Source of the DNA: a virus
Direction: 5' to 3' (one strand)
UHGV virus genome: UHGV-0059448
Length of the DNA: 29,315 nucleotides
Below the pieces are notes generated by a model. The model was not told the DNA's origin, made no database searches, and saw nothing but the letters and a program-made list of their open reading frames with translations. The translations under genes and the position numbers were made by a program. This document shows, piece after piece, positions 8,610 to 14,439 of the stretch (positions within the stretch are counted from its first letter, which is position 1; the number at the start of each line of letters is the position of its first letter).

Positions 8610-11126
8610 TTACCTGCGATTGGTCGCATTCCAGATAAGCCCACCGGGCTGGATTGCCCTGGCGATACCATCGTTGACAGATTTGTTAATCACCTGCTGA
8701 TACGCCTTACCCAGCCTGTCTCCGTCGTTTTGCTGCTGTGCGTTACCGGAAGCATTCTCGACCGTCACCGGGGCATATACACTGACACCGAAAGGTGCTG
8801 CAGCCGGGCCTGTACCACCGCCCCCGACATACCCACCCGTGGCATACCCTTTCATCATCCGGTAAAGATTGCCGACGCCGATCCGGCTGGTAGCCTCTTT
8901 GGTGAAAACAAATTCACCACGGTGAACGACACCTGCAGGTTCATATTTCCCGCCTGAACCGGTATAACCGCCACCTGCAAATCCCAGCGCGGTTGTCGCT
9001 GAATCCACCAGGCCTACCATCGCCTGTTTCAGCAGGATCTGTGTCAGCATGGAGAGCGTGGAGCGGGTGAAGTCAGCCCAGTCAGCCTTTCCGCGCGTCA
9101 GCATGTCAGCCATATTTTGCCCGATGCCATCAAACGCACTGGTGGCAGCCGACTTCATCTGGCCATAAGCATCTGAAGCAGAATCAACATAATCTGCCCA
9201 TGCGGATTTGGCTCCGGACTGCCAGTCGTCCCGCAGCTTATCCTGCTCGGCGTAATACGCCTGCAGCGCCTGCAGCTCATTCTGATAACCAGCATCGTTC
9301 TCCGAACCACCACCATTTTTCCAGCCCTGAAGAAGCTGGGCCTCTTCATTGCGACGTTGTGCTGCACGACTGCTCATACCAGCACTTTCCGCAAGGGCTC
9401 GGGTTTTCTCGCCGATCTGCGTGACGTATTTTTGGGACGTATCCTGCAGGCGATTAAGCCGCTCCTGCGCCACTATCTGATCGCCGAGCTTCGCATTCAG
9501 CTCCGCACGGGAAAGCACCTCACTTTTACTGGCCAGCAGGGATTTTTCCTCAGCAGAAAGCGTTCGGGTCTTCGCGGCCTCTTCCAGAACCGTAAAGCGG
9601 GACTGCTGACGCCACAGCTCCTGACGCTGCTGGCTGATGGTGTCATTGATGCTCTTATGCTCCTGCAGGGTGCGCAGCTGTGTCTGTAGCTCCAGCGTCT
9701 GGGCACTGGCCGTATCGGTGGCACGGGCACCTGCGGGGGTTCTGATTGCCGGGGTCTTCTTCGGCTTTTTAAGGGTGTCTTCGTACTCTTTTTTCGCGGC
9801 GGCCAGGTTGATGTTGTAGTCAGCCTGGAGGATCCGCCCCTCTTTCAGAGCCTTATTGAGCTCGCTCTGCCTGGCCGTGTATTTCTCAAGGGCAGTTTGG
9901 GTTTTGGCATAGTTGGCCTGAGCCTGCGCGGCATATTTCTGACGATCGGACTCTGCGACCGCTTCACGGGAAGCATTCTCTTCGTTCGCTTTGGCAATAC
10001 CAGCCTGCTGCTGCGCCATATCCAGCGCAAGCCTGGCCGTTTCACGATCATTCCAGAACCGGGCGCGGGCCTCATCATTCACATAATGATCGCCTTTACG
10101 CAGATTCCAGATTTCATCAGCCTTTTTAAACGCGGCCTGGGCTTTTGCCACCATCTCCTGGGCGGTGTCAGGTCTGCCAATATCAAGTGCAGCATCCCAC
10201 ATCGACTTGAAGGCACGCTTCAGGGAATCCGCTGAAGACTCAATCGTCCCCATATTGTCGCGGATGGCCTTGGTCTGATCGTTGAATCCGGCAGTAGCAG
10301 CCTGATTAGCCGCCTGCAGTGCGCCAGCCTCATCACCGGCACGCTGCAGCTGTGCCACATGGGCAATCTGTTCGGCCGTAACGTTGTGGAACTGCTGAGC
10401 CATCGCGATCAGGCCTGATGTAGGGTCAGTAGTGAGCTTGCCGTATGCGGCTGCGACTTTTTCCACCGGCACGCCGGAGGCATCAGTAAATCGCGCCACC
10501 GCCTGGCTCATTTCATCAAAGCGCGAACTCGCGCCCACCCCCGCGTTGATAAGCTCGCTCAGGGCTTCGCTGGTCTGATTGAACGTCAGCCCCGCTGCCT
10601 GGCCGTTTCGTGCCAGCGCCAACATACGATCGGCAGTCAATCCGGCCGTGTTCCCCGACAGTACCAGCGTTTTGTTGAAGTCAGATAGTGTGGATGAGCC
10701 CTGGTACCAGGCATAGAACAGCGCACCCGTTGCGGCGGACAGCGCACCGATGCCGACCATCAACGGTGAGATCGTACCCAGTAAGGCCCGGAATGTTGGT
10801 ATTATCCCGCCAAAGGAGTCCTTAACCTGACCGCCCTGCTGAAGCAGAATCAGCCAGGGGTTCTGCCCACCCGCCAGCTGCGTGGCCACGTCAGTAAACT
10901 GCGCCGGGAGCATACGCATCGCTGCGTTATACTGACCCACTGAAATACCGGCCTTACGCGCGGCGTTCTCCTGGCGGCTGAAGGACTGCTGGATACGTAA
11001 CGCTTCATCGTTTGCCGTATTGCCGGTCTGTTTTAATTCTTTTTTGACGTAGCTGAGCTGCTCGTTGAATTTTGTCGAGTTAACGTCAAGGTTAACGACC
11101 AGATCACCGACTGCCGTCTGGGCCAT
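8610..11126 (-). CDS. H: tail tape measure protein H
   Basis: 838-aa ORF, ATG at 11126 with AGGAGG SD; long Ala/Gln-rich helical protein with Gly-rich C-terminal region; follows G-T as in lambda. Confidence 0.95.
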   Translation of the reverse strand: MAQTAVGDLVVNLDVNSTKFNEQLSYVKKELKQTGNTANDEALRIQQSFSRQENAARKAGISVGQYNAAMRMLPAQFTDVATQLAGGQNPWLILLQQGGQVKDSFGGIIPTFRALLGTISPLMVGIGALSAATGALFYAWYQGSSTLSDFNKTLVLSGNTAGLTADRMLALARNGQAAGLTFNQTSEALSELINAGVGASSRFDEMSQAVARFTDASGVPVEKVAAAYGKLTTDPTSGLIAMAQQFHNVTAEQIAHVAQLQRAGDEAGALQAANQAATAGFNDQTKAIRDNMGTIESSADSLKRAFKSMWDAALDIGRPDTAQEMVAKAQAAFKKADEIWNLRKGDHYVNDEARARFWNDRETARLALDMAQQQAGIAKANEENASREAVAESDRQKYAAQAQANYAKTQTALEKYTARQSELNKALKEGRILQADYNINLAAAKKEYEDTLKKPKKTPAIRTPAGARATDTASAQTLELQTQLRTLQEHKSINDTISQQRQELWRQQSRFTVLEEAAKTRTLSAEEKSLLASKSEVLSRAELNAKLGDQIVAQERLNRLQDTSQKYVTQIGEKTRALAESAGMSSRAAQRRNEEAQLLQGWKNGGGSENDAGYQNELQALQAYYAEQDKLRDDWQSGAKSAWADYVDSASDAYGQMKSAATSAFDGIGQNMADMLTRGKADWADFTRSTLSMLTQILLKQAMVGLVDSATTALGFAGGGYTGSGGKYEPAGVVHRGEFVFTKEATSRIGVGNLYRMMKGYATGGYVGGGGTGPAAAPFGVSVYAPVTVENASGNAQQQNDGDRLGKAYQQVINKSVNDGIARAIQPGGLIWNATNRR

Positions 11127-11855
11127 AGCGCACGCCTCCTGAAATACCTGCAGCCTTCGCCATCAGCGTATCGTCATCCGGATCATCGATGTCGATGGCT
11201 TCCGGTGCAGAGGAAAGAATGCTGAAACTGTCCGGGGTTAACTCCGGATCGGCAAAAAACAGGGTTGAGATGGTGTAGAGCAAGCCGGAGAAATGTGCGT
11301 CCAGCTGCGCATCATGAAAGTAATTGTCCTGGTAGAAGATTTTCCAGTCGCCGTACTCCGTAGAGGACATGCCAGCAAGCATGGCACGCCAGTCCGGGCG
11401 ACCGAACTCACGCGCCAGTTTCATGGCAAATTTCAGCTCACTGGCGAGGACTTTTCCGCAGTAACGGGTTCAGCGGGATCATTACGTTCTTCACCGGATG
11501 AAGTCGGTTCTTCAATGACAGGCGCAATCATCCCGGACAGGAGTTTCACCTTATATTCCGCTTCGGCAACCAGTTCGGTCGGCCATGACTGCATGACCTC
11601 ATCCTGAATCTTTGCCACTTCCGCCGCCGCATTTTCTCCCTGGGAGCCTTTCAGTTCGTGGCCGTGCCAGAGTGACATCGCCACGAGGAACGCCCCACTT
11701 TTTACGGTGAGGGTGATGGCCGCCTGAAAATCGCCAGCTTCAACTGCCTCCAGCTGCTTCAGGTATTCGAGGTATTCAATACGCTGAAGCGCCGAAAGCT
11801 GGAACAATGTGACGCTGCTGCCGTTGCATTCAAGCAGTTCGCTCTTTAGAAACAT
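11104..11855 (-). CDS. T: tail assembly chaperone G-T fusion (programmed -1 frameshift product)
   Basis: The T reading frame (ORF 11104..11424) is -1 relative to G and stays open across the 3' end of G; putative slip site G GAA AAG at 11457..11451 (lambda uses G GGA AAG). Exact slip position is inferred. Confidence 0.7.
11433..11855 (-). CDS. G: tail assembly chaperone G
   Basis: 140-aa ORF, ATG at 11855 with GGAG SD; acidic C-terminus; position between V and T/H as in lambda. Confidence 0.9.
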   Translation of the reverse strand: MFLKSELLECNGSSVTLFQLSALQRIEYLEYLKQLEAVEAGDFQAAITLTVKSGAFLVAMSLWHGHELKGSQGENAAAEVAKIQDEVMQSWPTELVAEAEYKVKLLSGMIAPVIEEPTSSGEERNDPAEPVTAEKSSPVS

Positions 11856-11891
11856 AATTACTCCGGGGGAACGGGGCTCGCGCCCCGGTTA

Positions 11892-12629
11892 TCAGGAAAC
11901 AGTGACTTTGCAGATCGCCACAAAGTTACCGTCATTGCTCATAACGATGATTTCGACGGTGCCTGCCGCCACGCCGGTGACCGTCAGTGTGTTACCGTTA
12001 GCCGTAACTGTGGCTTTGGCCCGGTCAGCTGACGATACGCGGAAGGATTTATCTGACGCACTGGCCGGAAGAACAGATACAACCAGTTGCACAGTTTTAC
12101 CGACCGCAACAGCTGCAGTGGATTTATCCAGGCTGATCCCCGTGACAGCAATCGGCGCGGCACCACTGTCTTCTGCCAGTGATGGTTTGCCGTTGTTGGT
12201 GATTTTGGCCGTCCGGGTCATGACCTCTTTGGACGTAATGGTTTTACCGAGGCTGCTCACCCAGCCCTTAAACACATCGACAACACCATTTGGGTATTTG
12301 ATTTTATATCCCCTCACGGTGCCCTCATCGAACCAGATCACAAGGTCCTGCTGACCGGAATCTCCCGGCATCCACGCGAGCGTCAGGTTGGTTTCACCGG
12401 CTGATTTCTGCCCCTGCATGGTTGATGTCCAGTCAGCATTCTCATCATCGATGTAGGTATCATCCTCAGATTCGGCGGTCAGTTCGCCGGGCTGCAGGTC
12501 TTTAATCTTTGCCAGGCGCAGCCAGTCAACGTCTGAAAGCGGATTGGCGTATGGATCTCCGGTTCCGGTGTAAACCCAGAGGGTGGTACCAGCACCTTTT
12601 GTTGGTGTCAGCGGGTTTGGTGTGGCCAT
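11892..12629 (-). CDS. V: major tail protein V (with C-terminal Ig-like domain)
   Basis: 245-aa ORF; N-terminus [10 protein letters not shown]...[13 protein letters not shown] and C-terminal Big_2-like segment closely resemble lambda V as recalled. Confidence 0.95.
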
Positions 12630-13959: not shown

Positions 13960-14394
13960 TCAGACTTCGAAAGCCAGCCCCTTTGCGATCAAGTCGTCGG
14001 CATCCTGTTCAGATACGCGGATAATCACACCAGGCTCTACGATAGATACCGGCTCGTTACGCGTGGCATGCAGAGCGTCAATATGCAGGGTGGCCAGCGT
14101 TTCTACTGATACCAGGTCACCCGTTGTGGCCGATTCCGTTTTTACTTTTGCCACGTTAGCAACATTGTTGTCGGTGCTGTCGGTGCTGTCGGTGCTGTCG
14201 GTGCTGTCGGTGCTGTCGGAAGCATTCTGCACGCCGTTTTCACCGTCAACTGACCCGGCATTGCCATCCAGTTCCTCTTCAAGCTCAGCAATACGCATCG
14301 TCAGTTCCTGAATGGTGCCGCTGGTACTGACCTCGCGGTTAAGCTGGGTCCCAAGTTCATTCAGGCGGGCGACCAGCTTTTCTTTTTCTGTCAT
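13960..14394 (-). CDS. FI: DNA packaging protein FI
   Basis: ATG at 14394 (MTEKEKLVARLNELGTQLNREV...) with GGAG SD, preferred over the upstream start at 14430; C-terminal LHIDALHATRNEPVSIVEPG resembles lambda FI; contains an in-frame (STD)n repeat. Confidence 0.85.
   Translation of the reverse strand: MTEKEKLVARLNELGTQLNREVSTSGTIQELTMRIAELEEELDGNAGSVDGENGVQNASDSTDSTDSTDSTDSTDNNVANVAKVKTESATTGDLVSVETLATLHIDALHATRNEPVSIVEPGVIIRVSEQDADDLIAKGLAFEV
14170..14214. repeat. 9-bp tandem repeat GTCGGTGCT x5 (plus degenerate flanking copies) inside FI, encoding (Ser-Thr-Asp)n
   Basis: Five perfect head-to-tail copies at 14170..14214 with partial copies at 14164..14169 and 14215..14220; in frame on the minus strand (AGCACCGAC). 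Confidence 0.9.
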
Positions 14395-14439
14395 GGGAAA
14401 TACTCCAGAAAGGTGGCCCGACAGGGCCACTGGGGGAAG

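Follow-up and report, generated by a model that had tools for sequence, protein, structure and literature searches.

The tail gene region and the G/T overlap

The window, by which we mean the whole stretch of viral DNA that was analysed (29,315 nt), carries a set of tail genes that are all on the minus strand in the G-T region according to the ORF list. Gene G (11433..11855, zero frame), identified from the ORF list and its translation, encodes a tail assembly chaperone of 140 aa, ends with a TGA at 11435..11433 and matched PF06894 Phage_TAC_2, the lambda G chaperone, in Pfam with E=2e-52. The T portion of a predicted G-T fusion lies in the −1 frame (11104..11451, 115 codons, TGA stop at 11106..11104), and the fused G-T sequence matched PF06223 Phage_tail_T, minor tail protein T, with E=5e-12. 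Both ORFs are located between a lambda V-like major tail tube gene directly 5' of G (11892..12629, PF16461 and Big_2) and a lambda H-like tape measure gene (8610..11126, PF06791 and PF09718), whose start shares 23 nt with the end of T. An earlier sequence-only reading of this DNA had proposed the conserved tail chaperone frameshift at this place, and the two domain matches, together with the flanking V-like and H-like genes, agree with that proposal.

Prophages in E. coli chromosomes contained the G-T segment with 100% identity, and its DNA identity to the phages HK225, N15 and mEp237 was 95.3, 94.5 and 91.3%, respectively. The DNA of G itself was 94–95% identical to N15 gene 14 and to HK225 G, and the entire late region was collinear with those of HK225, N15 and mEp237. 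We consider it highly probable (about 0.9) that an E. coli lambdoid prophage of the N15/HK225/mEp237 kind has its G/GT recoding site here.

To define where the two frames overlap, we located the stops of the −1 frame. The last upstream stop in this frame is at 11472..11470, and from 11469 onwards it runs past the G stop without interruption until the T stop, leaving an overlap of 34 nt (11436..11469) before the G stop. The sequence-only reading had placed T in the −1 frame with respect to G and had it open over the 3' end of G; this was borne out, the −1 frame being open from 11469 to 11107. Since it is open there, a −1 shift anywhere in 11469..11436 would give a G-T fusion. The overlap reads A CCC GTT ACT GCG GAA AAG TCC TCG CCA GTG AGC and contains ten in-phase heptamers. 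When all ten were read, the only one that allowed cognate re-pairing in the A site was the one with A_AAG, and the only one that allowed any re-pairing in the P site was G_GAA_AAG. This heptamer (11451..11457, minus strand), recognized from the sequence, the translation, the N15 annotation and its conservation, is in the phase (GC)G GAA AAG, with 11457 as the third base of the Ala codon GCG, GAA (11456..11454) as the P-site codon and AAG (11453..11451) as the A-site codon. The T frame would be entered with the codon GTC at 11451, which re-reads the G of AAG, and the predicted GT protein comprises 135 + 115 = 250 aa with the junction ...PVTAEK/VLASELKF.... That G GAA AAG at 11457..11451 is the sole slip-prone site of the overlap, as had been claimed from the letters, agrees with both this direct reading and the comparative data given below.

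The heptamer departs at base 3 from the canonical X XXY YYZ rule, its bases 1–3 being G, G and A and its bases 4–6 all A, and it contains the A_AAG tetramer and the NNA_AAG hexanucleotide motif as GAA AAG in the G frame. The number of GGAAAAG copies in the 29,315-nt window was unremarkable (six, compared with 3.9±2.1 expected), and the case for the site therefore rests on its phase, position and conservation.

The slip site of this G-T module is already known. In the N15 record (AF064539), a misc_feature at 10027..10033 with the bases GGAAAAG is labelled 'slippery sequence for -1 translational frameshift' and aligns base for base with 11457..11451, and gene 15 is described as the 'downstream half of translational frameshift product'. 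The site was thus marked when N15 was sequenced, and the observation made in this window is correct but ordinary. N15 genes 14/15 and the present copy, with 94.5% DNA identity over G-T, have the same heptamer in the same phase and at the same 15-nt distance from the G stop, and differ by point differences only, the codon after the heptamer being TCC here and CCC in N15; the present copy lies in an E. coli chromosome, whereas N15 is a linear plasmid prophage. HK225, mEp237 and phi80 carry the same G-T module as N15, with GGAAAAG present in all three; the phi80 site reads ACG GCG GAA AAG CCC TTG CCA GCG AGC TGA. In the full-text collection that was searched, GGAAAAG was not found as a slippery sequence, nor was a GT protein, a junction peptide or a frameshift efficiency found for this phage or another one with G GAA AAG.

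Two further features were observed in the vicinity. A GC-rich hairpin, GGGGC-GCGA-GCCCC (11873..11886, minus strand), lies between the stop of the tube gene and the ribosome-binding site of G. Its counterpart is labelled 'putative rho-independent transcription terminator' in N15 and stem_loop in HK225; here it is almost without a T tract, and it could reduce the transcription of G, T and H relative to V. The ORF at 13960..14430 (minus strand), 5' of the head-tail joining genes, encodes five perfect Asp-Ser-Thr repeats in a row (DSTDSTDSTDSTDSTD) and matches by position the 'DNA-packaging protein FI' gene of the identical prophage.

Conservation of the heptamer and possible stimulators

To compare the site among relatives, we took annotated phages, species-representative genomes and viral contigs as sources of G-T loci, and mapped in each locus where G stops, where the −1 frame is open and where the in-phase A_AAG lies; at the DNA level, the comparison covered the nearest 80 to 100 PF06894 genes. 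The heptamer was G GAA AAG in 99 of the 105 unique G-T sequences, the lambda-type G GGA AAG in four, and G GCA AAG and A GAA AAG in one each. The G GAA AAG class extended to G proteins of only 34% identity and included hosts of the genera Escherichia, Enterobacter, Kluyvera, Trabulsiella, Entomohabitans and Rahnella, as well as Buttiauxella, Kosakonia, Phytobacter, Leclercia and Atlantibacter. T was intact (115 codons, PF06223) in essentially all loci. In the loci with GCG GCA AAG (L129/L037) and GCA GAA AAG (L152), only A_AAG is kept and T is intact with 110 codons; these sites may be natural low-efficiency variants or sequencing errors.

We then examined synonymous sites in 100 unique G genes, with the columns anchored on the slip site. 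The first base of the heptamer was G in 99 of the 100 genes, carried by the codons GCG, CTG, GTG or ACG, and in additional loci the preceding codon was CCG. Its entropy was 0.08 bit, as compared with 0.51–1.68 at ten other 4-fold sites of G and 1.37 for the adjacent codon, making it the most conserved 4-fold site in G among these genes, although a codon preference for GCG, CTG and CCG could be behind part of this bias. In none of these 100 genes was the Glu of the heptamer encoded by GAG or its Lys by AAA, whereas both synonyms occurred side by side in the remaining conserved Glu and Lys columns of G (entropy 0.50–1.0); the conservation of heptamer bases 5–7 is partly confounded by coding in two frames.

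The limits of the overlap in relatives point to the same site. In some of them the −1 frame opens just 3 nt 5' of the heptamer, and in others the G stop comes one codon past it, with overlaps reduced to 13–25 nt in some relatives, which brackets the shift to the heptamer. In one remote member (L188), the full overlap is T TTG GAA AAG TCC, that is, 13 nt. The comparative evidence strongly suggests that ribosomes enter the T frame at G GAA AAG.

With respect to elements that might stimulate the shift, those of dnaX, IS911 and IS3 comprise a Shine-Dalgarno-like element 6–17 nt 5' and a hairpin or pseudoknot 5–9 nt 3' of the motif. None of GGAG, GAGG and AGGA was present in the 20 nt 5' of the heptamer in the window or its close relatives, and an upstream Shine-Dalgarno element of the dnaX, IS911 or IS3 type is therefore missing from this clade. 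In a separate group, the Rahnella prophages (L082-L086), the site reads GCG GAA AAG CGC TAA, with the G stop one codon past the heptamer, and an AGGAG is found 10 nt 5' of it, which was seen in no other clade. This 10-nt spacing is that of Shine-Dalgarno-like stimulation in dnaX and IS911.

On the 3' side, folding indicated a candidate stimulatory structure (11371..11445, minus strand) that recurs in part among relatives. Its outer 10-bp stem pairs 11445..11436 (GCCAGUGAGC) with 11380..11371 (GCUUGCUGGC), beginning 5 nt past the heptamer (+6) and ending at the G stop codon, and it encloses a GC-rich hairpin in which 11417..11402 pairs with 11397..11382. The 101 nt 3' of the heptamer had a minimum free energy of −45.4 kcal/mol (z=−3.66). 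On folding, lambda, Buttiauxella, Entomohabitans and Kluyvera-type sequences gave an equivalent outer stem, and one stem pair switches from A-U to G-C in four sequences. The overall covariation of the stem was above the shuffle and slide controls, for a structure that was derived from the window and sequences that are interrelated. A comparable structure was absent in Rahnella, Phytobacter and the three remote members (z of −0.75 to +0.6 for the distant sequences), and synonymous sites in the 3' arm were just mildly constrained, which is unremarkable. These observations point weakly to the downstream stem as a possible stimulator.

The proposed slip and its alternatives

We propose that most ribosomes would reach the G stop and produce the 140-aa chaperone, and that a small fraction would step back 1 nt when the P site is occupied by GAA (Glu) and the A site by AAG (Lys). 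The E. coli tRNA-Lys that decodes AAG has the anticodon mnm5s2U-U-U and can also pair perfectly with AAA, as it would do in this slip. The tRNA-Glu, with the anticodon mnm5s2U-U-C, keeps its first and third pairs on GGA and has a G.U in the middle; its move from GAA to GGA would thus retain two Watson-Crick pairs and a central G.U, in line with the imperfect P-site re-pairing that the sequence-only reading had predicted. Reading would resume at GTC in the −1 frame and give the 250-aa G-T fusion (...TAEK-VLASELKF...), which, by analogy with lambda, would connect the tube and tape measure proteins and be made in a low, constant proportion to G. An efficiency of a few per cent would be expected from lambda, and G GAA AAG should be less slippery than G GGA AAG owing to the central G.U in the P site.

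This proposal agrees in its elements with published work. In E. coli, A_AAG is the most shift-prone tetramer (PMC4066793), and the best heptamers are G_GGA_AAG, C_CCA_AAG and A_AAA_AAG (PMC4066793; PMC5009743). Sites in which X_XX is G_GA are known, and Atkins et al. place them as intermediate between hexanucleotide and full heptanucleotide sites and also describe NNA_AAG sites (PMC5009743). The PRFect paper includes 'twofour' among eight extra −1 motif classes, and discusses the re-pairing of GAA to GGA via G:U in phage chaperone genes (PMC10885494); judging from the class name, GGAAAA may fall into 'twofour'. In the work of Bock et al. 2019, P-site GAA was not among the codons tested (PMC6787027).

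A tandem slip of both tRNAs at G GAA AAG is the mechanism that we infer, and the conservation of G at base 1 favours it. The same product would be formed if only the A-site tRNA-Lys slipped on A_AAG, leaving the first base of the heptamer idle. A −1 shift on A_AAG alone is described for E. coli, NNA_AAG motifs are known from the literature (PMC4066793, PMC5009743), and the relatives with G GCA AAG and A GAA AAG retain only A_AAG, indicating that P-site re-pairing is not absolutely required. Against this, tetramers that lack stimulators barely exceed background in E. coli (PMC4066793), and the synonymously free base 1 is G almost invariably across five different preceding codons. Since this first G is conserved, P-site re-pairing probably contributes, and we regard a slip of tRNA-Lys by itself as unlikely.

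The remaining explanations place the origin of T elsewhere or deny that the site works. Automatic annotation takes the ATG at 11422..11424 (minus strand) as the start of 'T', opening a 106-codon ORF (11424..11104), and if T were made alone from this codon a G-T fusion would be unneeded. HK225, mEp237 and RefSeq records draw the CDS from this ATG, but in the HK225 and mEp237 records the downstream product is named 'tail assembly protein GT'. Of 60 unique relatives, 33 have Leu in place of the Met encoded at 11424, the lambda-type sequences (CTG) among them, which argues that T has no conserved start of its own, and no Shine-Dalgarno-like sequence was seen 5' of the ATG when the sequence was read. 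Moreover, conservation of the peptide [V/A]LASEL.F..KLAREF.RPDWR in the T frame sets in with the codon directly after the heptamer, and hence 5' of the ATG. An independent start of T was rejected because ATG 11424 is not conserved, and we consider it very improbable. The overlap has eight further codons, and low-level shifts can occur despite poor re-pairing (PMC5009743), but no other in-phase site of the overlap offers re-pairing, in relatives the overlap is reduced to a few codons around the heptamer, and the flanking sequence varies where the heptamer does not; a shift elsewhere in the 34 nt, or slippage of the RNA polymerase on the A run, is given very little credence. Appreciable polymerase slippage needs a longer run than four A, and transcriptional slippage was rejected on this ground. 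The imperfect heptamer might also be a decayed site in a defective prophage that makes little or no GT, as could be read from the T CDS that PGAP marks as an incomplete pseudogene and from the single transition that separates the heptamer from that of lambda. Viable N15, phi80, HK225 and mEp237, however, share the heptamer, T is intact nearly throughout, and the conservation is far above the expectation for drift, leaving decay with a next to negligible probability. The tandem slip at G GAA AAG remains the reading that we prefer.

The pseudogene label comes from the record of the 100% identical E. coli prophage (L181, NZ_CM129885.1), in which RefSeq/PGAP draws T separately from G and flags it 'incomplete; missing C-terminus', with ribosomal slippage not annotated. 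The flag is probably due to the N15-type T, with 115 codons, being shorter than the T of lambda.

Slip-site states in the lambda G family and related systems

To place the heptamer within the family, we ran a profile search against 1.84 billion representatives at 50% identity, which gave 165 family members, 74 of them full-length, and sorted the full-length members by the dipeptide ending in Lys within their last seven residues. Glu-Lys was found in 49 of the 74 full-length representatives, Gly-Lys in eight, Lys-Lys in five and Ala-Lys in four, and the other eight had no such dipeptide. At the DNA level, three remote Glu-Lys members carry CCG, TTG or GCG followed by GAA AAG TCC TGA. Other recognized slip sites occur at the homologous position, namely G GGA AAG (lambda), A AAA AAG and G GGA AAA. 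Judged from these sequences, the textbook heptamer of lambda is a minority state within the lambda G family. The description of the heptamer as non-canonical consequently stands only in part: it is apt with respect to the strict X XXY YYZ pattern and to lambda, but the identical N15 heptamer had been annotated and most of the family has G GAA AAG.

We tentatively suggest, at somewhat less than even odds, that PF06894 as a whole slips predominantly at G GAA AAG, which would probably also be its ancestral site, that the first G of this heptamer is selected for G.U re-pairing in the P site, and that the long-range stem of lambda and N15 tunes the efficiency. If this is true, strict X XXY YYZ pattern searches overlook most members of the lambda G family, the best known of those with a phage frameshift.

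Another closely related system, besides that of N15, is lambda G/GT, which shifts at G GGA AAG (Levin, Hendrix and Casjens 1993; Xu, Hendrix and Duda 2004, 2013, 2014, as cited in PMC5009743) with a ratio of 30:1 (PMC5009743). The two loci share homologous G and T (PF06894, PF06223), the order V-G-T-H, the −1 direction, a slip site at the same codon, an A-site AAG, a G tail of 5 codons and a similar possible downstream stem. They differ in the P-site codon, which is GAA (Glu, tRNA-Glu) here and GGA (Gly) in lambda, and in its re-pairing, with a central G.U here and a third-position wobble in lambda; in addition, the G proteins are only ~45% identical, and T has 115 codons here and 144 in lambda.

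As at the bacterial NNA_AAG and A_AAG −1 sites, such as those of IS1222 and B. subtilis cdd (CGA_AAG) that are cited in PMC5009743 and PMC4066793 (Licznar et al. 2003; Sharma et al. 2014), tRNA-Lys would slip from AAG to AAA after a codon that ends in A. Unlike those sites, the base before the P-site codon is a conserved G here and allows partial P-site re-pairing, which places G GAA AAG between the hexamer type and the complete heptamer. For G_GAU_UUU in dianthoviruses, umbraviruses, mesoniviruses and insect flaviviruses (PMC5009743), and for the mycobacteriophage tail chaperone site GGGGGAA (PMC10885494), a move onto GGA in which the middle pair is not Watson-Crick is accepted or discussed as workable. 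These systems differ from the present one in their hosts, ribosomes and A-site codons, and in GGGGGAA the GAA codon occupies another ribosomal site than in G GAA AAG.

The value of the site as a discovery is small, since that of N15 is known and the mechanism lies within documented classes of bacterial −1 frameshifting; what is left concerns annotation practice and the recognition of G GAA AAG, not G GGA AAG, as the family type. A search with the strict X XXY YYZ pattern (PMC4066793) would miss G GAA AAG, and the 100% identical E. coli prophage has G and T split with T flagged as a pseudogene; NNG GAA AAG could mark G-T joins reliably across the lambda G family. The heptamers G GAA AAG, G GGA AAG, A AAA AAG, G GGA AAA, G GCA AAG and A GAA AAG form a natural series in which P-site pairing can be set against efficiency.

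Two family members with an N15-like G (P0031 and P0049, 82–84% identical to the G protein of the window) have ...PVTAGKPSPAS in place of ...PVTAEKPSPAS. If their Gly codon is GGA, the G GGA AAG of lambda would have arisen within the N15-like clade by a single A to G transition.

Lambda-type G-T was also observed on a number of low-coverage contigs (L068-L080 and L094-L097), several of them of ~48.4 kb, from assemblies labelled Pseudomonas, Neobacillus, Oceanobacillus, Kitasatospora, Shewanella, Leeuwenhoekiella, Chromatium and others. Over G-T, one of these contigs (L070) matches phage lambda with 100% identity, and for this reason the group looks like contamination of the assemblies with lambda control DNA.
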